Shown here one piece after another: positions 8,289 to 26,698 of a stretch of DNA of 64,000 bases. Numbering within the stretch: the stretch's first letter is position 1; the number at the start of each line of letters is the position of its first letter. A model generated the notes under the pieces. That model did no database searches. It was not told the DNA's origin and saw only the letters and a list, made by a program, of their open reading frames with translations. Source of the stretch: a virus. The stretch is from the IMG/VR virus record IMGVR_UViG_3300009177_000720; one strand, written 5' to 3'. A program made the translations under genes and the position numbers.

Positions 8289-9368
8289 TTAGTCGCTATC
8301 CTCAAAGGTTTCACCTGAACTACCATCGTGAATTGATGATGGTTTTTCATCAATTTCAGCATTCAAAATGTCATCAGATTGAGCATCATCCATTACAATA
8401 AGACCTTCTAAATCACCAAAATCTGGTCTTGGCTTTGGTCTGCTGGATGGTTGTCTGACAGTTGGAGGTGGCTCTTCGATGCCCTCTTCCATCATTTTAT
8501 GAGCCTTCCATTTCTTGTAAAATTCATCAAAAGATTTTGGTTGAGGAACGTCAACATTATTATCATCAGCCATATTGAATTCAGTGCCGTGATGCTTAAG
8601 GTTTTCCACCATTTTCTCTGGCGTCAATCCCTTAGTATGCCAATCACTCACTGAAAGCGGATTCTTTGGCTTATGTGGCTTTCCTCTAACATCATTATCA
8701 TCAAGCCCTAATTCTTGAGCAATGCTCTTGAAAACTAATTCATCTGGACTTGGCTTATCATCTTGCTTTGGTTGCTTGAGAAGACTTTGCATCTCAATTT
8801 CTTGACCGGGTTGAACTCCGACTGGACCAGGGTTAGCCATCCATTGAGAAACATTTTGTTGAAAATTTTCAGATTCGGATGGTCTATTCGGATCAATTGG
8901 AGCCATTGGATTCTCGATCCATGACATGAATCTCTGAGGAGAGCCCTCTGGATTCATTAATTCGGCAGCTTCTTCTTCACTCATAAGATTATGTCTACCA
9001 ATGAAAGAAGCAATTTCTTTATCAGTATATCCTAATCTTCTAAATGCAGTATTTACTCTAGCTTTAGAAAAAGCATCACCCTTACCTAATCCTTTTAGAT
9101 CGGCTTGGGTTACACCATTTTCCATCAATGATTGCATTGATGGCATCATCTTTACTTTAGTATCATGCTGAGCGGCAATTTTAGATAAAATCTGAAGAAC
9201 TTGTTCTGCCTTAGCAGTCATGCCAGCCTCTTCAAAAATTTGAGCCGCAGAATGAAGATACTCCACTGCCTGAACAAGGCTATTCATGCCTTGCTTTTTT
9301 TCATGAGAGTGTAGCTCGCGCTGCATTCCATGGATTAGCTCATTTTCGAAAAGACTTTTTTTGATCAT
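8289..9368 (-). CDS. Hypothetical head-region protein with N-terminal helical-hairpin module
   Basis: First 65 aa are clearly paralogous to the whole 9380..9607 protein; acidic Pro-rich remainder. Confidence 0.65.
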   Translation of the reverse strand: MIKKSLFENELIHGMQRELHSHEKKQGMNSLVQAVEYLHSAAQIFEEAGMTAKAEQVLQILSKIAAQHDTKVKMMPSMQSLMENGVTQADLKGLGKGDAFSKARVNTAFRRLGYTDKEIASFIGRHNLMSEEEAAELMNPEGSPQRFMSWIENPMAPIDPNRPSESENFQQNVSQWMANPGPVGVQPGQEIEMQSLLKQPKQDDKPSPDELVFKSIAQELGLDDNDVRGKPHKPKNPLSVSDWHTKGLTPEKMVENLKHHGTEFNMADDNNVDVPQPKSFDEFYKKWKAHKMMEEGIEEPPPTVRQPSSRPKPRPDFGDLEGLIVMDDAQSDDILNAEIDEKPSSIHDGSSGETFEDSD

Positions 9369-9379
9369 TATTCCTCAAA

Positions 9380-9607
9380 TTAAGAAGTCTTGCCGGAAAG
9401 CTGTTGAGCCAATCCCTGCAAGACTTCAGTTACTTCATCAGCTTGTTCGGTCATGCCGGCCTGATCAAAGATCTCGGCAGCAGCATTTAGATAATCAGCA
9501 GCTTGTGCTAGCTTACTAAATCCATGCTTATCTTCAACTTGTTTTGCAACAAGTTGCTTTTCCATCGAATGATAGATCTCGTCTTCAAAGCTGCTTTTTT
9601 TAAACAT
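9380..9607 (-). CDS. Stand-alone helical-hairpin module protein (75 aa)
   Basis: MFKKSSFEDEI...AADYLNAAAEIFDQAGMTEQADEV; paralog of the 8289..9368 N-terminus. Confidence 0.7.
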   Translation of the reverse strand: MFKKSSFEDEIYHSMEKQLVAKQVEDKHGFSKLAQAADYLNAAAEIFDQAGMTEQADEVTEVLQGLAQQLSGKTS

Positions 9608-9621
9608 AGGTTACCTCAGAA

Positions 9622-10353
9622 TTACTTCTTAGAAGAAGAGGAAGACTTAGATGCCTTCTCTTTTTCCTTGGCAGCCTTTTCCTTAGCCTTTTCCTTGTCA
9701 GCTTTTTCCTTGGCCTTAGCCTTTTCCTTAGCTGCCTTGTCCTTAGCCATTTGGGTATCACGCTTCTCTTTTTCCTTAGAAGCTTTTTCCTTGGCCTTTT
9801 CCTTAGATGCCTTATCCTTAGAATCTTTCTTGGAATCCTTTTCCTTCTTCTTGGCTTCAACAACCATAGAAGCTAGCTTCAAACTGAAAGCAGCGGATTT
9901 TTCCATTCCAACAGAGTCAAGGGCGGCAGAAGCAGTTAGCAAGCTGTCAATAGCAACATCGAAAGCTGCACTGGAATCCATGTCGTCAGCGTAAGAGCTG
10001 TCGTCAGAGTCATCCTTCTTTTTCTTGGCATCTTGGTCATCAGCACTTGCAGAGTCGCTGCTTGAAGATGAAGATTCTTCCTTCTTCTTTTTCTTAGCAT
10101 CGTTGTCATCTGCAAAGAAGCTGTCGTCAGCGCTGCTAGAATCAGAGGAGTCATCCTTCTTCTTCTTTGCATCCTGGTCGTCAGCCATAGCAGAGTCACC
10201 ACACTTGCAGGCGTCGCTTCCGCACTTTGGGCACTTTGCATCATTTTCATCTGATGCAAACTTGTATTGAGTATTGAACAAAGATTTGTGGGCTTCGCTC
10301 TTTAGAACTGCATCCATTGTTGCAGCGACAAAATCTGATACACTTTTAGTCAT
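9622..10353 (-). CDS. Highly charged low-complexity protein (possible internal DNA-binding/core protein)
   Basis: CPKC-x4-CKC; ADDxDAKKKK repeats; KEKA-rich tail; AGAGGA RBS. Confidence 0.6.
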   Translation of the reverse strand: MTKSVSDFVAATMDAVLKSEAHKSLFNTQYKFASDENDAKCPKCGSDACKCGDSAMADDQDAKKKKDDSSDSSSADDSFFADDNDAKKKKKEESSSSSSDSASADDQDAKKKKDDSDDSSYADDMDSSAAFDVAIDSLLTASAALDSVGMEKSAAFSLKLASMVVEAKKKEKDSKKDSKDKASKEKAKEKASKEKEKRDTQMAKDKAAKEKAKAKEKADKEKAKEKAAKEKEKASKSSSSSKK

Positions 10354-10382
10354 AATATCCTCTATTTATTTTGTTGTATTGC

Positions 10383-13300
10383 TTAGAACATTCTCTTGGA
10401 AGTCTTAGCAAGTGCTGCGGACAATTGAGACCAATCATCTTCTGCTGAGACAGCAGTATTGATTTCACCAGAACCAATTACGCCAACTTGTGGTAGACGA
10501 CCGGCAGTTCTACGTAGAGGTTGATGCTTTGCAACTACTCTCTTAAGAGTTTCGAAGTTTGCTTCGTTGAAGCTCATTAGCTCATCAACGTGAGCGGAGA
10601 TAACATTTCTGTCATTAGCAACTAAGCCACGGTCAACCATTTCATAGGTCATCTCGTAAGCTCTGGCCATCTTGACCTTGAACTTGTTAAGTTCTTCTTC
10701 AAGTTGAGCCTTAACGTGCTCCTTGACTAGTTCGCTTGCGAACTCAGATCCACCGTCTACTTGACCGTAGAACTTCTTGTAGTAAGAAACTGCATCCTTA
10801 TCCAAACCTTCAGCTACTAGAGCGTCCAAATCGGATGGGTCAAGCTTTCCTTCAGAAACTAGTCTGTGGATTGCTTCTGCTTCCTTACGAACCTTAGGTG
10901 GAGCCTTTGCAAGTTCCATCATAGCCTGGTTGACTTCTGGTAAGGTTTCGACCTTTCCTAGATTATCAGATGGCTTTACATCAAGTTCAGTCTGGCCATC
11001 AGCAAGCTTATCGGCTGCATCAAGCATGTCGCTAAACTTAGCGTGAGACATATCTTGAATTTCACCGTCATCTTGCTTGCCTAGTGCATCGGCAGCTAGC
11101 TTGGCACGAAGTGCGGCACGACCTTCTCTGGAATCAAAGGAAGCCTGAACAGTTACTTCGGTACCTGGCTTGACATCTAGACCCTTCTTCAACTCTTCTG
11201 GAGTTGCCATTAGGTCATTTGCGTCATCAACGGCCATGCCAGTCATTTCAGCTAATTCATCATGTGCTTCGCCCATGTGATCATTATCATCATCAGCCAT
11301 TAATTCCTTGACAGCATCCAAATCGGAGTTGGTGTCAGAAATCATGGCCATCAAGTCATCGCCATTGTTGGCGTCTAGTTCGCCTGTCATATTCTCTCCT
11401 TCAGCTAATGCTTCAAGTTCTGCTTCAATTTCTGCGCGCTTGACAATAGCTTTGGTTCCACGAGCATATTTGACGAAAGCGGTCATCAATTTGAATCCAT
11501 CTGCTACGGCAGACTTGGCTTCATTTAGCGCATCTTCAACAATAGTACCAACAAACTCTTGGTTAGAGTTAGTTACAGCGCCCTTGTCGTAAAGACCAGA
11601 GATCATGTCAAGCTCTTGTGCATGGTCATTTAGGTTAGCAACTGCTTCCTTCATGGCATGGGTAAGTGCGCCATTAAGTTCTTTTCTCAATCCGTTTAAG
11701 GTTGAGGTGCTAAAGGATGCTGCTGCGCCCATTTCTGGAGCAGAAGCGCCTTCCATCTCGCCCATTTCGGCTTGTTCACCAGTTAATGCTCTAACAGCTT
11801 CAACAAGGTCTGAACTTAGGTCTCTAACTTTTTCTGCCAAATCAGCAGCGGCTGCCTTTGGATCACCAGACTTGCCAGTGTCTTCGGCTGGAGGTGCACC
11901 TGCATCAGGAGCTGGTGCAGAAGAATCGGCTGGAGGTGGAGCACCTGCGTCAGCGGCTGGAGGTGGAGGAGCAGCCTGTGCACTCTTTACAAGTGCGGCT
12001 ACCTTCTCAACTCCACTAGTCTTTACCTTCTCAAGTAAGCTAGTTCCAAATTCCTTAGTAGCGATACTTCCGTATAGCTTGCTTGGACGACCACCAGATA
12101 GATCATTAACAGAGGCGGTTAGAATAAGTTTGTCACCACGGTAAACTTCCCAAGCACTGTCGCCTAGGTTACGGGTACCATCTTCATTGGTAGCGTAAAC
12201 GAACTTGGCACTTAATGCGGAAGCTCTACGTAGCATTTCCTTACGCTTTAACTCATCAGAGGTTTCAGCGGATTGTGGGGATGGGTGCATACCATCGACT
12301 GGGCCAACACCTGGGAATGGCTTTTGACCAACCATGTGCTTGTCGTCTCTCTCACGAAGGACGTACTCAAGCTTGTCAACTGGATACTTTGGCTTGCCTG
12401 GAGTTGGAGTTCCTGGGTTGTTGCCATCACCGTTTTGGAAGTAAGCAGTCTTGTTTTCAAGAGCTTGCTTAGCAAGGTTCACGATTGCAGAACGGCGAGC
12501 AGCTCTCTCTTCGGATTCAGCACGAGCAAGCATCTTCTTACGTTGTAGTTCGTCAGAAGGGTCGGCGGAATCTGGAGATGGGTGCATACCATCTACGGAG
12601 CCAACTTCTGGAAATGGGGATTGACCCACCATTTGCTTATCCTCTTTTTCACGAAGTTGCTCGTTGAGAGGATCTTTTGGATACTTGGCTTGACCTGGGG
12701 TAGGCTCGTTTACGCCACCAGCGCCTTGATAATAACCCTGCTTATTAATATTTGTACCTGACATATTTTCCTCTTGTTTGTTTGTAGAAGTGTTTGCTAA
12801 CTTATCCAAGCTTTCTTTCATTTGGCTCAACTTGGTCTCGATGGCCGTTGTGACCTCTCGAAGTTCAGCGATAGGGTCCACCCCTACTTCAGCGGTCGCG
12901 TATCTTGCATGTGGGGGAGCCAATCCAGAATCAGTACTTGGAATTTCCTCCAAGCCTTGATCCGATGCCAAATCATTAGTATCTTTTTCAGAAATTTTAG
13001 CAGAGGCATTAATCTCGCTTAATTTCGCAAAAGCTTTATCAACGTCTTCCTTGAACTTGGCAAGGTCGGTTGAGTTTACTGTAAATTGTGCACTGCCTCC
13101 ACCTTCATGACCTTTAGGATCATTAACAGTTAAAGTGGCGGAGAATGATAAATCTGCTATTCTGTTAAGCTCTTCTTGCTTACTCTCGACATAGCTGTTT
13201 AGTGTATTTGCAGCAGCAATAATATGTTTAATATTAGCTTTTGGATCTGCACCATTTACAACAATGGATAATTCAATTGGGTTTAAATCTACGTTAATTT

Positions 13301-13955
13301 CACCATAGCAACTCTTACGTCTCATATGGTCACAGAAGTCAGCTTCTGTACGGGCTACCTTGGCACAATCTGAACAGATGGCCTTTCCAACAGCGGTACC
13401 CATGGACACACAGTTAGAAACTCCGGTAGCTACTTGTCTTGCTAATTGTGGATACCCGGCCTTGTCTAAGGCACATAGAGCAATTACTCTCTTGAGATTG
13501 CGGTCATAATAGGTATCAACAATAAAGCCTCTTACATGATCTACTGAACTTGATTTATGATCAATGCAAAGAGGCTTTCCGACCCATTTCCTATAAGCTC
13601 TTACTAATTCTTCCTCTGGAAAGATATCTCCGTTGGAATTCTTATAAGGCTTAATGCTAGGGTCATTACTCATCCAGCGCCAAGTACCACCAGCTTTATC
13701 CCAGCCTACTTGGACAGTCTCTCCTTTAGCGTTTAGCTTTGGAGTTCCATCATCATTAAGGCAAGATGCTTCAGCGGCATGCATCATGACAGCAGAGAAG
13801 TATAAAAAGTCTTCTGCCTTTGGAGCAACCTTCTTTAGGTTGGCTGCAAACTTTTTAAAGTTCTCCAAAATTTCAGGGCTGACAGCAGGAAGACACGACT
13901 CCGTGGCCTCTACTCTGCTAATCTCAATCAGTTCACCTAGTTTTACAAATGACAT
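10383..13955 (-). CDS. Prohead (maturation) protease fused to a long scaffold-like region
   Basis: N-terminal NGDIF...GKPLCIDH...RGFIVD...VSMG...ELSIVVNGADPKA matches HK97/assemblin-fold prohead proteases (His/Ser), with a Cys/His insert; C-terminal acidic coiled coils. Confidence 0.75.
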   Translation of the reverse strand: MSFVKLGELIEISRVEATESCLPAVSPEILENFKKFAANLKKVAPKAEDFLYFSAVMMHAAEASCLNDDGTPKLNAKGETVQVGWDKAGGTWRWMSNDPSIKPYKNSNGDIFPEEELVRAYRKWVGKPLCIDHKSSSVDHVRGFIVDTYYDRNLKRVIALCALDKAGYPQLARQVATGVSNCVSMGTAVGKAICSDCAKVARTEADFCDHMRRKSCYGEINVDLNPIELSIVVNGADPKANIKHIIAAANTLNSYVESKQEELNRIADLSFSATLTVNDPKGHEGGGSAQFTVNSTDLAKFKEDVDKAFAKLSEINASAKISEKDTNDLASDQGLEEIPSTDSGLAPPHARYATAEVGVDPIAELREVTTAIETKLSQMKESLDKLANTSTNKQEENMSGTNINKQGYYQGAGGVNEPTPGQAKYPKDPLNEQLREKEDKQMVGQSPFPEVGSVDGMHPSPDSADPSDELQRKKMLARAESEERAARRSAIVNLAKQALENKTAYFQNGDGNNPGTPTPGKPKYPVDKLEYVLRERDDKHMVGQKPFPGVGPVDGMHPSPQSAETSDELKRKEMLRRASALSAKFVYATNEDGTRNLGDSAWEVYRGDKLILTASVNDLSGGRPSKLYGSIATKEFGTSLLEKVKTSGVEKVAALVKSAQAAPPPPAADAGAPPPADSSAPAPDAGAPPAEDTGKSGDPKAAAADLAEKVRDLSSDLVEAVRALTGEQAEMGEMEGASAPEMGAAASFSTSTLNGLRKELNGALTHAMKEAVANLNDHAQELDMISGLYDKGAVTNSNQEFVGTIVEDALNEAKSAVADGFKLMTAFVKYARGTKAIVKRAEIEAELEALAEGENMTGELDANNGDDLMAMISDTNSDLDAVKELMADDDNDHMGEAHDELAEMTGMAVDDANDLMATPEELKKGLDVKPGTEVTVQASFDSREGRAALRAKLAADALGKQDDGEIQDMSHAKFSDMLDAADKLADGQTELDVKPSDNLGKVETLPEVNQAMMELAKAPPKVRKEAEAIHRLVSEGKLDPSDLDALVAEGLDKDAVSYYKKFYGQVDGGSEFASELVKEHVKAQLEEELNKFKVKMARAYEMTYEMVDRGLVANDRNVISAHVDELMSFNEANFETLKRVVAKHQPLRRTAGRLPQVGVIGSGEINTAVSAEDDWSQLSAALAKTSKRMF
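12222..12749 (-). repeat. Two ~78-aa direct repeats within the protease-scaffold (approx. 12519-12749 and 12222-12458)
   Basis: Both copies contain K-x-[AG]-Y-[YF]-Q...PTPG..KYP.D...DK.MVGQ.PFP.VG.VDGMHPSP.SA..SDEL.RK.ML.RA. Confidence 0.9.
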
Positions 13956-13957
13956 AT

Positions 13958-14116
13958 TTATCTCCCTGATTTCTTCATTTCTGAAGGATCAGCTTCTTCC
14001 TCAGATGTCTTGATTACTTTTTTGGATAGATCTTTAGCAGCTTTTTTCTGCGCGTCAGTCATCTCTTCGGTTTCGACAACTGATAAAATTTTTCCATCAC
14101 CGTGTTTTATAAACAT
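13958..14116 (-). CDS. Small protein, 52 aa (MFIKHGDGKILSVVETEEMTDAQKKAAKDLSKKVIKTSEEEADPSEMKKSGR); not in ORF track
   Basis: GGAGAG RBS; stop 2 nt before the protease start; fills the gap in the operon. Confidence 0.7.
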   Translation of the reverse strand: MFIKHGDGKILSVVETEEMTDAQKKAAKDLSKKVIKTSEEEADPSEMKKSGR

Positions 14117-14236
14117 CTACTCTCCAAACGGGAGCATCACAATAACTCTTAATTATAATGGATTATTGCCACAAAATTCTCATTTCCGGCAGTAACTTCA
14201 ATCATATATGTTAATATTCCCATTATAACTGAGGTT

Positions 14237-14890
14237 TTAATTACCTGATTGTGATGATTTCTCCTTGATAATGTCGTTAAGCTGATCCTGACGTTGGTTG
14301 AAAAGGTCAATAATTAGTGGTGTTTTCTCTTCAATATTCATTTGAAGATCGGTACTAACATTGTCCACCCAGCTTGTAGCTAAGATATTAGTTTGAATAT
14401 GGTTTTTAATTCTTTCATCAATAATTTCATCAATTTCTTCGCACTGCTTTTGAATATCTTCAAGCGCCTTCACTACATCTTGTGGGAAAGACTTGGCCTC
14501 TAAATCAGCAAAAAGATCGACAAGTTTATTAACCTTGACTTCTAAATCATCAATTGATGAAATAAAAGATTTCATTAATTTCAAGGTCTGAGTATCAGAT
14601 GAAAAAATCTGCATTACATTAACGCAGTTAAAAGCTGCTTTTTTGAACTTATTGAAATTATCGACGGCTTTATCTCTAAATCGTCTAATAGCAGCTCTAG
14701 CCTTCATTACTTCCTGGGGATCCATTTCTGGGTTATCCTTGAAGGGAGTCTTCATAATATCCAAATGATCAGATGCCATCTGTAGCATCTTAGCGGCATG
14801 CTCAAAATACAAAAGGGCCTGTTCTGCCTGCGTTTTCTCCGCATCAGACACATCGTAGGTCATTTGTACTGCATAAGCCTTCTTAATCAT
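14237..14890 (-). CDS. Hypothetical helical protein
   Basis: Start moved to MIKKAYAV, overlapping the upstream stop (ATGATTAA); all-helical composition. Confidence 0.65.
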   Translation of the reverse strand: MIKKAYAVQMTYDVSDAEKTQAEQALLYFEHAAKMLQMASDHLDIMKTPFKDNPEMDPQEVMKARAAIRRFRDKAVDNFNKFKKAAFNCVNVMQIFSSDTQTLKLMKSFISSIDDLEVKVNKLVDLFADLEAKSFPQDVVKALEDIQKQCEEIDEIIDERIKNHIQTNILATSWVDNVSTDLQMNIEEKTPLIIDLFNQRQDQLNDIIKEKSSQSGN

Positions 14891-19642: not shown

Positions 19643-21514
19643 TTAGGTTGGAGGTGGAGGAGGGGCTCCGCCTGCTGGTGGGCCGCCTTCCGGTGGTGGA
19701 GGAGGTGGTGGGGGCGCTCCGCCGCCACCGCCTGGAGGAGGTGCTCCTAAATCTAATCCTGGTAATCCGCCGCCTGGAGGAGGTGGTCCGCCGCCTGGAG
19801 CTTCTCCTGGTAATGGACCTTCACCACCACCTGGTTGACCTGGCTGTCCTTCTGGCTCTGGAATTTCATCTTCCTCATCCAAAGAACGAAGAGCATTCAA
19901 ATCCATGGCCTCAAGAGCAGCCTTTTCTTTCTTATTAATAGCAATTTGAATTGCTTCTTTGCGCATTTTACGGACTTCGTCTTCAAATTCTAATCCAAGA
20001 GAACGATACAAAGTATGCAAAGAGGCTCTTTTAGCTGCGTCTTCACCCTGGGTCAAAGTCACAAGACCGTTGATATAATCGCCAGCATCAAACAATGACA
20101 TGTGGTTCCAATCAATATCTGGAACGATCAATTGCTTTTCTCCACCCGAATAGTCGTAAAATCCTTGAATCTTAGAGATTGGGGCAAAAATCTTTCTTTT
20201 AAGCCAGGTTGACATCATGTTACGGAATTGCATGTAACGCTGTCTCAAAACGTCAAGAGCCACACCACCGTTCGCATAAGTAGTATCAGCACCCCCGTCC
20301 ATAAGAACAGGTGGAACTTGTAAGCCCACATAAATTTCTTTAATGATTTGAGTAATGTCACCAGAAATGTCATAGATGCCTTGGCCATATCCAACACGCT
20401 CAACAGCTACGCCGGCATGGGTAAAGATCTTAAAATCTTTATCATATTGAGCTTCCTCGAAAACGTTTCTCCAGGCTTCCAAGTCAGCGAAAGTTGGATG
20501 CAATCCATCAGGACCATCCGTACCAACCTTGACCAAAGTAAGCGGATTAATCATGTTGTCTGCTTGTGCGTACTTCGATTCACGCAACTTGTCGAAAAGC
20601 ATCAACTGACGGAAAATACAGACTGGCAGACCGGTTCCACGAATTTCGTAAGGGCTAATTCTACGGGCCAAATGAGAAACATGGAAATTGTCAAGCGGGA
20701 TATTTTCGCCACGCTTAACAGAATCAATGATGTGATTGTTGAGTTGCTTGCGTTGTTCAATATCAGTTGGTCTATTGGAGAAAACAATCTTCTTCAAGTT
20801 TTCGTCAGGACGTAACATGATGATTGGTTCGTTGGCAACAACAGTACGCTTAACAATCATGTAGTCTGGGTTTTGAATAAGAATCCTGCTCCATTTACCA
20901 CGGCTTTCATCAAGCTCAGCATAAACGAATGATTCACCAAGAAGCCAATACTCTTGGGCAATTTGGACACAAATATTCATCAAATCAATTTCTTCAATCA
21001 TGTCATTGAAGAATTTTTCGATGTCTTTGTTAGGACATTTGATATTTAATTTGCTAATTGGGTAAGTACTGTGTAAGTTAATTGCGTTGTGAACGAAAGG
21101 GTTCAAAGCATAAAAACTACGGCACCAAGCGTTGATAGTAGCTCTATCACGTGGAAGGTTAAGGTTGGAATTTAACCAAAGAGGAGAATAAACTTCTGGT
21201 GTCTGCTTGACGGTATCGCCACTGCCACCACGAAAATTACCACCGCCACCACTGCTAACGACTTGAGCAAATTTATGAACACCGACAGAAGAAACTACGC
21301 GACCATTAGCGGTAGCAGCATTCTCTTTGTTGGAAGGTCCAGAGCCGTCTCTGAATAATCCTTCTTCTACTTCACCGGCAATACCCTGCCTTCTAATATC
21401 TGACACACTACGAGACATTAGAGAGCTAACTTGTGGTAAAGTCGATCTATTTCCCAAGTATTGTTCAGAGTTGGAGGGTCCTACCCATGTTTTCTGAGTC
21501 TTATTGATAGCCAT
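19643..21514 (-). CDS. Portal protein
   Basis: Adjacent to terminase; WCRSFYALNPFVHNAINLHSTYP, YWLLGESFVY, HLARRISPYEIRGTG, GLQVPPVLM pattern of phage portals; Pro/Gly tail. Confidence 0.8.
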   Translation of the reverse strand: MAINKTQKTWVGPSNSEQYLGNRSTLPQVSSLMSRSVSDIRRQGIAGEVEEGLFRDGSGPSNKENAATANGRVVSSVGVHKFAQVVSSGGGGNFRGGSGDTVKQTPEVYSPLWLNSNLNLPRDRATINAWCRSFYALNPFVHNAINLHSTYPISKLNIKCPNKDIEKFFNDMIEEIDLMNICVQIAQEYWLLGESFVYAELDESRGKWSRILIQNPDYMIVKRTVVANEPIIMLRPDENLKKIVFSNRPTDIEQRKQLNNHIIDSVKRGENIPLDNFHVSHLARRISPYEIRGTGLPVCIFRQLMLFDKLRESKYAQADNMINPLTLVKVGTDGPDGLHPTFADLEAWRNVFEEAQYDKDFKIFTHAGVAVERVGYGQGIYDISGDITQIIKEIYVGLQVPPVLMDGGADTTYANGGVALDVLRQRYMQFRNMMSTWLKRKIFAPISKIQGFYDYSGGEKQLIVPDIDWNHMSLFDAGDYINGLVTLTQGEDAAKRASLHTLYRSLGLEFEDEVRKMRKEAIQIAINKKEKAALEAMDLNALRSLDEEDEIPEPEGQPGQPGGGEGPLPGEAPGGGPPPPGGGLPGLDLGAPPPGGGGGAPPPPPPPPEGGPPAGGAPPPPPT

Positions 21515-21591: not shown

Positions 21592-23484
21592 TTAAAACTT
21601 ACGAGGGATAAAGGCGGTCGTAACCAGTGGTTTATTACGTTGTGCGAAACTCTGCTGCTGAAGAATTGGATTATTATTAGTGAAACCCCTTGTAATGATG
21701 AACTTATATGCCAAATAGGCATTCAATAAAGCCATAAAACCGTCGTTAGGGGTACTACCCTTGACATAATGAATGGTTGGGTCAGCTCCCATCCTAGAAA
21801 TGGATGGCTTAATTTCCATGCTACAACAATGGTCAATCAGCCAAGCAACCTTTTCATAATCTCCAAAAGGAAATTTAATCATTCCCTTTTTCATTTGATC
21901 ATATAGCTCACCAATGTAAAAGTCTCTTTCAAAAACTAATTCTTTAGGAAAAGCATCCGCTGAGAACTTAATATGATCATTAACCTTATTATGAGCGCGG
22001 GAAACTAAATACTTATCGCCATAAATATTATGCAACATTGCAGAGAAGTCATTAGAATAACCAATGTCTCCAATTGCTAATTGAACACTGTATTGTCGCA
22101 TTATTTGATCAATAAGACCCTTTTTGCTTTCCATGTCATTTCTTTTGAACTTGGTAGCAAACTCAATATTTAATAAATTTGGTCCTTTGGCAGATAAGAC
22201 TACGGCCGTACTATAAGACTGTCCTGCCGCTCGTATCTTATCCGGGTTCGCTAATTGCTCTAAGTCTGCCCTAGCACCATAGTCGATTCCTAGTACCACT
22301 ATTTGCGGATTAATACTATTTCTTACTGGAACAATACGGGCCGCAAACTTCCTGTCGTCTCTGCAAAATTCTTTAATTTCTTCTGGAGTAATAGGGCTAG
22401 AATCACCTTGGAAAAATTCTCCCAAGACTTCGTTCATGAATACACGCTCGGTGTTGATTGGATGTTTACCAGGCATTTCATTATCAATGTCCTCTCTGGT
22501 AAACATTGGCATGTAAAGCTGATTAATATGAAAACCAACCATCTGGCAATCTTCATCATCTGGATCTTTAAGAGCGACCCACTTGCCACGTTCGGCGGCC
22601 TCTAGTTTGTTTTGTTCGTGTCCGCAGTGAGGGCACTTGACAATGAATCCGTGAATCCAAATCTTCTTCCAATCATCTGATCCTGGAGTATAAAGTGGGA
22701 AATGTTTATCACAACCCTCACAACCAAGATAATAGTATTGTTGGGAAGAAGTCTGCCACATCTTGTGAAAGTCAGATCCCTTGCGTCTTGGAGTTCCAAA
22801 ATAAACTTGTACTCCCTTGGATGGTCTACCATACTTGGCAGTGGTTAGAATCTTTAATGCGTTTCCAATGGCTTGACCGGTGGTCTTCTGAACTTCGTCA
22901 AAGAAAAGAATATCAGCAGTACGACCCATGATTCTGTCAGCGTCTAAACCAGTTGACTCAACCCATAAATGGTTTCCACCTTGGAACTGTTTAAAGTGCA
23001 AGGAGTCATTGGTTGCGGTTGATTGATCAAGCAAAGTCTGCATGTAAGACTTTGGTTTAGCGGCAGTCTTTTTATCCGTCTCTTGTCCCATCTGAACTGA
23101 TGATGAGATGATTTGGTTTAACTTGGTCTTAGAATAAGCAGCAGCCAATTCCAATTGAGGAAAGGCATGAATGATTCTAATTGGTGGCTTTTCACTTGTT
23201 CCAAATAATCCGCAGCCCATGAAATACATTTCAAGGGCGCTGGCCATGGTAGTGGCGCCGACCTGACGGCCTTTAACGATAATGAGCGGCTTAGAAGTTG
23301 GTTCTAGAGCTTTAATACCAATGTATCTGTAAATGTCGGCGAAAGGTTTATACCCATTGCCTCTTAACCTAAATGGCTTTCCATCAAGTGTTAAATACGT
23401 TTCGCAAAAATAAACTGGATCAAGATTCAGTAAATCTTTCTTTAATTTGTTAAATAGGTCTTTATCATTACTGCTAGCGGGCAC
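21592..23484 (-). CDS. Terminase large subunit (GpA-like)
   Basis: Walker A KGRQVGATT, Walker B ILFFDEVQ, GTP coupling motif, CEGC...CPHC zinc ribbon, GFHINQL, nuclease GIDYG and NDGFMA. Confidence 0.9.
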   Translation of the reverse strand: MPASSNDKDLFNKLKKDLLNLDPVYFCETYLTLDGKPFRLRGNGYKPFADIYRYIGIKALEPTSKPLIIVKGRQVGATTMASALEMYFMGCGLFGTSEKPPIRIIHAFPQLELAAAYSKTKLNQIISSSVQMGQETDKKTAAKPKSYMQTLLDQSTATNDSLHFKQFQGGNHLWVESTGLDADRIMGRTADILFFDEVQKTTGQAIGNALKILTTAKYGRPSKGVQVYFGTPRRKGSDFHKMWQTSSQQYYYLGCEGCDKHFPLYTPGSDDWKKIWIHGFIVKCPHCGHEQNKLEAAERGKWVALKDPDDEDCQMVGFHINQLYMPMFTREDIDNEMPGKHPINTERVFMNEVLGEFFQGDSSPITPEEIKEFCRDDRKFAARIVPVRNSINPQIVVLGIDYGARADLEQLANPDKIRAAGQSYSTAVVLSAKGPNLLNIEFATKFKRNDMESKKGLIDQIMRQYSVQLAIGDIGYSNDFSAMLHNIYGDKYLVSRAHNKVNDHIKFSADAFPKELVFERDFYIGELYDQMKKGMIKFPFGDYEKVAWLIDHCCSMEIKPSISRMGADPTIHYVKGSTPNDGFMALLNAYLAYKFIITRGFTNNNPILQQQSFAQRNKPLVTTAFIPRKF

Positions 23485-25138: not shown

Positions 25139-26698
25139 TTAAATATTCCATTTATCTTCATAGATGAGACTTTCCGGTCCCAAAGTTCCATAATCTGGAT
25201 TCATTTCATCAATTATGGTATCTTCTTCTTCCGAATGGTTAAACCCATCTGGCAAGCCGTATAAATCTGAATCTTGTTCATGAGATAAGTATTTATCCAT
25301 TATTTGGCTTAATAATTCTTCATCTACCGAATCACCATCTTCCTCATAGTCGCGGCCATAATTTAAGGTAGTTGGTGGTTTACCCTCAAAGTCAGGGTAG
25401 AATAGGGGAGGCTCGCCTCCACCAATTTCGGTGGCGTGCATAAAACTGGAGTTATCTCCTAGATTTGGGAATCCAGGGAAAGTACTCATATCACCAGGTT
25501 CACCTTCAGGTCCAAGCATAAAAAGCCTCTGAAAAGAAGCGTCGTCATGCTCAGGAGGAAGGGTCTCAATTTCATCATCTATTGGAAAATCAATAGCAGT
25601 TTTCATAATTTGCGAAATTAATTCGGCACGTGCTTTGATTTGAGGATTTTTCTTGGTAATTTCCCCACTGTCCTCAATCCAGGAATCATCAGCCTTGTAC
25701 TTGTCCTTCATCTTCTTGCGCTTGGCCTTTAGAAATTCAGAGACGCTTTTATACTTTTCCATGGAGTGCCAACCGGCTCCGGGGCCGATGTGCTCGAATC
25801 CAGGGATGTCGTAAAGGTCGTAATTACGATAGAAGGGTTCCTTGAAGCGCGTTTGATTGACAATGGCTGGGTCAGACTTGTATTTTTTCTTTTTAGGAGC
25901 TGGCTCATTAACACCACCCCCGCCTTGGAAATAAGCCTGCTTTGGCATCCCCTTAGCTTTCATATAGTATGGTTGAACTACTTCGGTAATTGGAATCTCT
26001 TCCCATAAATTCATTTTGCTAATATAGAAAGCGGCCTTATCAGCATCACGATTAAATGCTTCATTCAATTTTTCAGTCATTGCTTTTTCACTAGCAATTT
26101 TAACTGAAGATGGATTTCTAGTAACGTAATCAATGATACTTTGATCAATATCAAAATCTAATTTGGAAGCTAAATAAATAGCTCTAATTACTCTATTCTT
26201 GTTAGAAGTTAAAGTAATTTCTGGAGACAAACAAGTTTTGATTTTTCTTTCCTTAATATCTTGAAAGCCTTTGTGAGTTGGATCTATTAGATTTTTAAGA
26301 TCTAAAGACAATAGTAGAGCGTTACAGGTAAAATCCCTGCTAAACATCTCTTTTTGCATCTCAGTTGGGCGAGCAATTCCTTGCTTAGCAAGAATGGCAT
26401 CAATATTTGGTACATTAAAATTGGAAGAAAAGTCCATTTTAAATGAACCAATGTAAATGGAACTATGACCATCATCATGATCTCTTCTAGTTACATTGTA
26501 TTTTTTGCCTAAAATAGTGCCGAATTCTGAAGATAAATATCCAACTGTCTTGTCACCAGTTGTAATGTCTAAATCCGAAATATTCTCCAAGTGCTTGAGA
26601 TAGCGATCTCTAGGCGTACCACCGCAGATATAGGCTTCAGATGAGCCTATTTTCTTTTGGGTATCCTGCATTTGTTGGAGAAGTTCTCGAAGTTTCAT
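25139..26698 (-). CDS. Class II (CCA-adding/poly(A) polymerase family) nucleotidyltransferase with long acidic C-terminal extension
   Basis: YICGGTPRD, DLDITT (catalytic DxD), SRDFTCNAL, IDPTHKGFQDI, NRVIRAI; extension begins with a scaffold-like peptide. Confidence 0.85.
   Translation of the reverse strand: MKLRELLQQMQDTQKKIGSSEAYICGGTPRDRYLKHLENISDLDITTGDKTVGYLSSEFGTILGKKYNVTRRDHDDGHSSIYIGSFKMDFSSNFNVPNIDAILAKQGIARPTEMQKEMFSRDFTCNALLLSLDLKNLIDPTHKGFQDIKERKIKTCLSPEITLTSNKNRVIRAIYLASKLDFDIDQSIIDYVTRNPSSVKIASEKAMTEKLNEAFNRDADKAAFYISKMNLWEEIPITEVVQPYYMKAKGMPKQAYFQGGGGVNEPAPKKKKYKSDPAIVNQTRFKEPFYRNYDLYDIPGFEHIGPGAGWHSMEKYKSVSEFLKAKRKKMKDKYKADDSWIEDSGEITKKNPQIKARAELISQIMKTAIDFPIDDEIETLPPEHDDASFQRLFMLGPEGEPGDMSTFPGFPNLGDNSSFMHATEIGGGEPPLFYPDFEGKPPTTLNYGRDYEEDGDSVDEELLSQIMDKYLSHEQDSDLYGLPDGFNHSEEEDTIIDEMNPDYGTLGPESLIYEDKWNI

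Follow-up and report, generated by a model that had tools for sequence, protein, structure and literature searches.

Little is understood of the assembly and sizing of capsids large enough for about 0.5 Mb of DNA, and the phages concerned here carry no recognisable scaffold gene. The locus discussed here lies in a 64,000-nucleotide stretch of viral DNA (IMG/VR record IMGVR_UViG_3300009177_000720), which as a whole is called the window below. Its gene belongs to an uncultured phage lineage with genomes of about 0.45-0.5 Mb, and raises the question whether a scaffold protein could be encoded inside the gene for the head protease. The initial annotation had pointed to two Shine-Dalgarno (SD) sequences within the 1190-codon reading frame, followed by in-frame ATGs at 12764 (793 aa) and 11390 (335 aa). 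It had likened the arrangement to lambda C/Nu3 and herpesvirus UL26/UL26.5, where a protease-free scaffold is made from an internal start. The coordinates, the frame and the product lengths proved correct (Table 1).

Judged from the window alone, the two pairs are only weakly unusual, and thus weak evidence. The gene contains 36 internal in-frame ATGs. Across the genes of the window, a 5-mer SD at start-like spacing precedes 10 of 407 such ATGs (2.5%), and four of these ten belong to the protease gene, at codons 398, 442, 856 and 886. The neighbouring genes commonly have an RBS of the form GAGGA-N3-7-ATG, as for example the next gene, at 10353. Upstream of the protease gene, on the same strand, lie the genes for the terminase large subunit (21592-23484) and the portal (19643-21514). 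A major capsid gene was not found among the downstream ORFs within the window, which were compared with phage records, PHROGs, Pfam, and gp20-gp28 of phage G. At the RNA level, one metatranscriptome run contains a single 230-nt contig at 12275-12504, inside the gene; it is silent on starts and may be DNA carry-over.

Table 1. Features of the protease gene, in coordinates of the window
Feature	Position	Strand	Remarks
Full ORF	10383..13955	-	1190 aa, 128 kDa, pI 4.9; a long, acidic, helical/disordered C-terminal part is fused to the prohead protease
SD of the annotated start (GGGAG)	13962..13966	-	Serves ATG 13955
Prohead (capsid maturation) protease domain	13236..13853	-	Residues ~35-240
Variable linker	12765..13235	-	Residues 241-397; helices, two beta hairpins and a disordered stretch; in the full-length product only
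Internal SD 1 (A-GAGGA)	12769..12774	-	4-nt spacer to ATG 12764
Internal start 1, codon 398	12762..12764	-	Met invariant
Duplicated module, two copies of ~80-100 aa	12222..12749	-	Y-[YF]-Q-G ... M-H-P-S-P ... K-x-M-L-x-R-A; begins a few residues past Met398
Internal SD 2 (AAGGAG)	11396..11401	-	5-nt spacer to ATG 11390
Internal start 2, codon 856	11388..11390	-	Position of the Met shifts by up to a few codons between homologs
Conserved C-terminal helical domain	10521..10928	-	Residues ~1010-1145, pLDDT ~78-87; common to all three predicted products
Predicted nested product 1	10383..12764	-	793 aa, 85 kDa, pI 4.8; without protease domain
Predicted nested product 2	10383..11390	-	335 aa, 36.6 kDa, pI 4.6; acidic disordered stretch, then the conserved C-terminal helical domain

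The protease domain and its conserved fusion

Judged by sequence, the N-terminal domain of the protein is a prohead protease. Residues ~35-240 match phrog_18299 (head maturation protease) with E=1e-14, and also PHROG 2774, a family of proteins of ~1260 aa. In tblastn searches, gp19 of phage G is matched with 34% identity over residues 35-237 (E=3e-20), and further matches fall on annotated prohead proteases of Burkholderia, Rhodococcus, Gordonia and Mycobacterium phages. D132-H133 and S184-M185-G186 are invariant in the domain, and His133 (in P-L-C-I-D-H-K-S) and Ser184 (in V-S-M-G) are unchanged across 62 homologs. The domain also contains a Cys-rich insert that resembles a zinc ribbon (C194, C197, C208 and C216).

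For a model of the protease domain (pLDDT 64), T4 gp21 (PDB 5jbl) is the top fold match with both aligners, at scores that lie in the chance range for the library (Foldseek E=0.026; VIA Z 7.1, rmsd 4.3, 127 residues). The proteases of varicella-zoster virus (Z 6.6) and then of KSHV and HCMV follow. The middling fold scores agree with the sequence evidence for the identity of the protease. T4 gp21 is thus the closest fold and Bacillus phage G gp19, a stand-alone protein of 300 aa, the closest cultured relative by sequence; both are without the 950-aa tail. Phage P2 (gpO) and mycobacteriophage Myrna (gp97, phrog_2774) also encode, just upstream of the capsid genes, one long polypeptide that has a prohead protease at its N-terminus. 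P2 gpO differs in being reported as a full-length protein only. Myrna gp97 has only the protease domain in common with the window protein and was for this reason rejected as an outgroup in the comparison of starts; inspection of gp97 itself showed no internal start that is clearly comparable.

Metagenomes from soil, freshwater and other sources contain hundreds of full-length homologs, and the contigs that carry them reach ~510 kb. For comparison, 116 viral-contig loci were reduced to 87 unique ORFs, the window's own included, with 48-80% identity to the window ORF. In every locus that is uncut by a contig end, protease and tail form a single ORF of 1100-1260 aa; longer homologs have inteins inserted in the protease part. 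A search for split forms, by HMMER with residues 398-1190 against 1.84 billion representatives, returned mostly fusions of 1100-1600 aa and found no stand-alone genes for the nested parts.

Several short matches were considered as candidates for such genes and rejected. P0220 seemingly starts at Met398, and P0233, P0236, P0249, P0255, P0261 and P0264 look like stand-alone C-terminal domains, while P0265 clusters with a member of 1180 aa. They are taken to be fragments because they come from contigs of 1-4 kb or, for P0265, cluster with a full-length protein. A scan of viral contigs with P0220 brought up one more fused ORF and nothing else.

The probable start at codon 398

The first internal start is conserved in the whole family. 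An SD and an ATG are present at this site in all 87 unique homologs, down to 48% identity, and in 85 of the 87 the SD is GAGG or GAGGA at identical spacing. In two sequences (L075 and L085) one codon is inserted at the site, and the SD is retained 7-8 nt before the ATG. GAGGA is unchanged in 37/37 sequences, while the preceding residues vary (Q/H/Y/K, E, E/D, N/T/I) and the linker has indels; E-to-D changes at the site leave it intact. All 27 non-redundant sequences tested encode Glu395 by GAG. Across all 19 conserved Glu columns the share of GAG is ~29%, and at the other 18 it ranges from 0 to 59%.

Scans of the entire gene lead to the same site. When all 36 SD-like 4-mers of the gene are considered, the one at codon 398 is alone in being kept family-wide (in at least 90% of the sequences). 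The strongest excess of synonymous identity in the whole 1190-codon alignment is found in the windows at codons 383-398. The RNA around the site is among the 3.8% least structured windows per gene, with a mean z of +1.67 (51-nt windows, median over 42 sequences). Between residues 250 and 404, only L386, E395 and M398 are invariant.

At the protein level the pattern extends beyond the comparison set. Of 230 long homologs, many of which have no more than 31-45% identity, 202 have a Met 3-14 residues ahead of A-Y-F-Q-G, and this Met usually follows E-E or E-D. The remaining long homologs appear to be mostly failures of the search pattern, and not true absences.

The internal SD is better conserved than the SD at the annotated start of the gene, found in 62 of 79 homologs. 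This comparison bears on the idea that the sites are unused relics of the fusion of an ancestral protease gene with a scaffold gene. A fusion origin is plausible, since phage G has its protease as a stand-alone gene followed by separate genes. However, an unused SD would be expected to decay, and this one has persisted in 87/87 homologs, in lineages that share only about half of their residues. We take the chance that the sites are mere relics to be close to nil.

Both internal Met residues lie between folded parts of the predicted structure. In the AlphaFold model of the full-length protein, which is of low overall quality (pLDDT 53.8), folded or helical segments are separated by disordered linkers; Met398 is placed in the predicted disordered linker 385-422 and Met856 in the predicted disordered linker 847-866. 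The model agrees with the initial annotation, according to which the starts fall at domain boundaries.

SD-like sequences within genes have been proposed to slow ribosomes, a notion that is disputed. Their exact position at domain boundaries would suit elongation pauses that aid co-translational folding of the domains, without any initiation. Yet pausing needs neither an invariant ATG at start-codon distance nor an unstructured, A-rich context with the geometry of the real RBSs of the phage, and other domain boundaries in the gene are without such a sequence. Pausing as the sole function of the sites is thus exceedingly unlikely.

The possible start at codon 856 and other in-frame ATGs

The second internal start has a narrower distribution. 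An SD with an ATG is found in 52 of the 63 sequences in its alignment column, and in 63 of 87 when a shift of up to 8 residues in either direction is allowed. In the main clade, which is ~60-80% identical to the window sequence, GGA-GA is kept in 19 of 19 non-redundant sequences; as a baseline, GGA makes up 26% of the codons over 33 conserved Gly columns. The ATG stays 4-11 nt past the SD while it shifts by one or more codons relative to the protein alignment. The Met thus moves with the SD, as is more to be expected of a start codon than of a structural Met. Apart from the site at codon 398, this is the only SD-like 4-mer of the 36 that is conserved in the main clade. The RNA context is mildly unstructured (z +0.8). 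The initial annotation had named conservation of the SDs and Mets among homologs as one way to judge both sites. The pair at codon 398 is kept without exception; that at codon 856 is kept throughout the main clade and is missing from the divergent clades (L019, L027-L038 and others).

The background of chance pairs in the homologous ORFs was estimated from the other in-frame ATGs. About 7% of these are preceded by an SD, or 11.5% once the two sites are counted in. An SD accompanies just two of the 21 conserved Met columns, those of codons 398 and 856. The two further SD-bearing ATGs of the window gene were rejected as conserved starts: at codon 442 the SD is present in 21 of 81 sequences at its column, and the column of codon 886 is not a conserved Met column. 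Around codon 856 the protein abounds in Asp, Glu and Met, so that SD and ATG pairs arise more readily by chance.

The divergent clades have pairs of their own. A conserved AAGGAG-N6-ATG heads the second copy of the repeat (Q~500). L071 and one lineage have an SD with an ATG directly ahead of the conserved C-terminal domain (Q~936). Lineages without the site at codon 856 often have an alternative pair at Q~936 or Q~969, as in L071 and the L019 group, and some pair between Q 845 and 975 is present in 76 of 82 full-length sequences. The second start may have relocated between clades. The sequence data are only suggestive in this respect, because the region Q 845-975 is itself rich in Asp, Glu and Met.

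These observations can be read in favour of a simpler scheme, in which only the start at codon 398 is used, two products are made as in lambda, and codon 856, a peculiarity of its clade, initiates rarely or never. The absence of the second site from the divergent sequences, its only mildly unstructured RNA context, and the ease with which its acidic, Met-rich surroundings yield SD and ATG pairs would all be accounted for. On the other hand, the scheme does not predict that GGA is fixed in the main clade at a site where the ATG tracks the SD and not the protein alignment, that this is the sole further conserved SD-like 4-mer there, or that lineages without it so often have a pair nearby. On this evidence, use of codon 398 alone appears unlikely.

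The two sites together also bear on the question whether the motifs E-E-x-M-S and E-G-E-x-M are protein features, such as a cleavage or recognition site of the protease or linker residues, with an incidental likeness to an SD and a start codon. T4-type prohead proteases cut after Glu. Both motifs fall within linkers, the places at which one would look for cleavage, and E395 and M398 are invariant. Because these two residues are invariant as amino acids as well, they may have a role at the protein level besides the start signal. As a full explanation, however, protein features are very unlikely. They leave unexplained why Glu395 is encoded exclusively by a minor codon (in the tested subset of 27, with the SD present in 87/87) and why GGA is fixed at codon 856. 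They also fail to explain why GAGGA survives E-to-D changes, why the extra codon in L075 and L085 shifts the residues and spares the SD, and why the Met at codon 856 floats.

Predicted nested products and known parallels

The sequence comparisons show that selection has preserved both SD and ATG pairs as nucleotide sequences and not solely as encoded amino acids, and internal initiation of translation is the simplest reading of such selection. Together with the protease domain and the conserved fusion, this supports the kinship in arrangement with lambda C/Nu3 and UL26/UL26.5 that the initial annotation had seen. A nested protease-scaffold gene of the lambda C/Nu3 type is the best explanation of the data as a whole, and we consider it likely. 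The one gene probably gives rise to three products.

In the proposed mechanism, ribosomes that initiate at ATG 13955 would make the 128-kDa protein, a protease of the T4 gp21/assemblin type tethered to an acidic helical or disordered tail. Ribosomes that bind the internal GAGGA of the same message would initiate at ATG 12764 and make an 85-kDa protein without the protease. In the clade of the window phage, the second internal AAGGAG would direct initiation at ATG 11390 and yield a 37-kDa protein, which consists of an acidic stretch and the C-terminal helical domain. All three proteins would end in one C-terminus. As this C-terminus is common, the short forms could supply most of the scaffold or core, and the scarce full-length form would co-assemble with them through it and bring the protease into the procapsid. 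A scan of 10000-14400 with the sigma-70 consensus, which does not extend to phage-specific promoters, found no internal promoter. The internal starts have bacterial SDs, so that the nesting would be translational and not transcriptional.

We infer that both sites are translated, in what proportions the products are made, and that they act as scaffold. The role of the C-terminal part as a scaffold is suggested by its position, its composition and the analogy with known systems. With a pI of 4.6-4.8 the predicted nested parts are acidic, and most of their length is helical or disordered. The conserved C-terminal helical domain is, by analogy, a candidate for the capsid-binding end. For the ~950 residues beyond the protease, no significant match to a Pfam, PHROG or PDB family was obtained, by PDB profile search or by Foldseek with the full-length model. 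The nested parts did not match known scaffold families either; the weak Atlas leads T4_CASP and Mu-like_Pro reach a score of 0.86 (below 0.9). A peptide of the duplicated module also occurs in a nucleotidyltransferase.

The divergent clades allow a bolder reading. The head gene may be programmed to yield at least three nested proteins in series, with a first internal start that is universal and later ones that have been gained, lost or moved between clades. The main clade would then have codon 856 as its additional start, and divergent clades the head of the second repeat and Q~936. Such a series would dose distinct core or scaffold layers for a very large capsid. Multi-nesting is on record for cytomegalovirus, by way of separate transcripts; to our knowledge, a translational series of this kind has not been described for any phage. 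We regard the series as possible, if on balance doubtful.

If the nested reading is correct, the scaffold of these phages is hidden within the 'protease' ORF, and automatic annotation misses it family-wide, in hundreds of metagenomic genes that are each called as one hypothetical protein. The conserved SD and ATG pairs would set exact product boundaries (85 kDa and 37 kDa) for expression, structure determination and metaproteomics. The case would offer a way into the assembly of giant capsids. It also illustrates that the conservation of synonymous codons can expose internal starts in uncultured phages.

The gene is probably a well-conserved new case of a known strategy, in giant uncultured phages and with an extra nested product. 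Nested protease and scaffold genes have been described in lambda, Mu, an archaeal virus and herpesviruses, and the window gene would extend the strategy to another deep branch of tailed viruses. In lambda C/Nu3, Mu I/Z and the Mu-like Pseudomonas phages (PMC4378225), as in the window gene, the gene for the prohead protease contains an in-frame internal SD and start. In lambda, Mu and the Mu-like phages, the shorter product is the scaffold, is made from the same message and shares its C-terminus with the protease protein. The window gene has no sequence similarity to these systems past the general fold class of the protease, and it is two to three times longer. It also probably has two internal starts in place of one, belongs to phages of ~0.5 Mb, and its nested products are predicted from sequence.

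The herpesvirus UL26/UL26.5 genes likewise fuse an assemblin-type protease to a scaffold, and their protease-free nested forms are made in excess. The arrangement is known from malacoherpesviruses as well as from vertebrate herpesviruses. Herpesviruses differ in that the nested forms arise from separate 3'-coterminal transcripts with internal promoters, in contrast to the bacterial SDs of the window gene. According to the citation of Welch et al. 1991 in the references of PMC4032930, the nested family of the cytomegalovirus assembly protein comprises four in-frame products, and more than two nested products would therefore have a precedent.

In the archaeal tailed virus HFTV1, a gene annotated as a fused protease-scaffold (gp17) has an internal in-frame start from which the scaffold (gp17.5) is made, as demonstrated by Ribo-seq and mass spectrometry (bioRxiv 10.64898/2026.09.13.751334). 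HFTV1 differs from the phages described here in its experimental basis, its archaeal host and its single internal start, and the likeness is one of arrangement.

Further candidate starts and synonymous conservation

In the divergent clades, which lack the codon-856 start, the second repeat of the nested product opens with a conserved AAGGAG-N6-ATG. Some divergent sequences also carry an SD of the GGAGA or AGGA type, followed after 5 nt by an ATG, just ahead of the conserved C-terminal domain. These extra pairs may represent lineage-specific additional nested starts. Both repeats of the nested product open with the motif A-Y-F-Q-G-G-G-G-V-N-E-P, which also occurs in a nucleotidyltransferase-like protein encoded in the window. 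Two Met codons precede the motif there, neither with an SD at usable spacing; an AAGGGG directly abuts the second ATG. In the gene under study, synonymous conservation has additional peaks with no start codon nearby, and nearly all homologs encode Gly344 with GGA.

Coordinates of features in the window and in homologous loci (L-numbers)
Feature	Location	Details
AAGGAG-N6-ATG, head of second repeat	L027, L029, L019, L028, L038: codon 487; L034: 470; L115: 474; L109: 473	
SD and ATG ahead of C-terminal domain	L027: codon 987; L071: codon 942	
Nucleotidyltransferase-like protein	25139-26698 (-)	519 aa; region of the motif: residues ~246-275
Synonymous-conservation peaks	12918-12989 (-)	codons 323-331 and 340-346 (span 323-346)
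Cys cluster C194, C197, C208, C216	13308-13376 (-)	residues 194-216; H210 close by
Mycobacteriophage Myrna gp97	L002:5839-9474	NC_011273.1; annotated 'tape measure'
Enlarged homologs	L016:6001-10698; L021:5989-10779; L085; L094	ORFs of ~1360-1600 aa
Acidic, Lys-rich ORF	13958-14116 (-)	52 aa; stop TAA 13960-13958

The protease domain and its relatives

The Cys cluster lies directly past the catalytic Ser and is kept family-wide; Myrna gp97 has it too (I-C-S-A-C ... C-Y-H). Its zinc-ribbon Pfam matches are weak; it is probably a zinc-binding insert typical for this protease subfamily. The N-terminal part of gp97 is a prohead protease domain with 34% identity to residues 106-211 of the window protein, and its gene precedes the major head protein gene, two genes upstream of it. 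The current label of gp97 is therefore likely a misannotation.

The enlarged homologs, and the homologous proteins P0069 and P0091, contain an insertion of ~370-380 aa within the protease part, and as a result the Met398 equivalent is shifted to residue 763-785. Judged by precomputed Pfam matches to intein/Hint and LAGLIDADG domains (PF05203, PF14528, PF14890), the inserts are predicted inteins within the prohead protease.

Upstream ORF and distribution of the genotype

The 52-aa ORF ends only 2 nt ahead of the protease start codon (ATG 13955), and the protease gene may therefore be translationally coupled to it. DNA near-identical to window 9300-14300, with 16 differences in 5 kb, is present in groundwater, soil and rhizosphere metagenome assemblies from several studies. 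The genotype of the window phage is thus widespread in subsurface and soil habitats.
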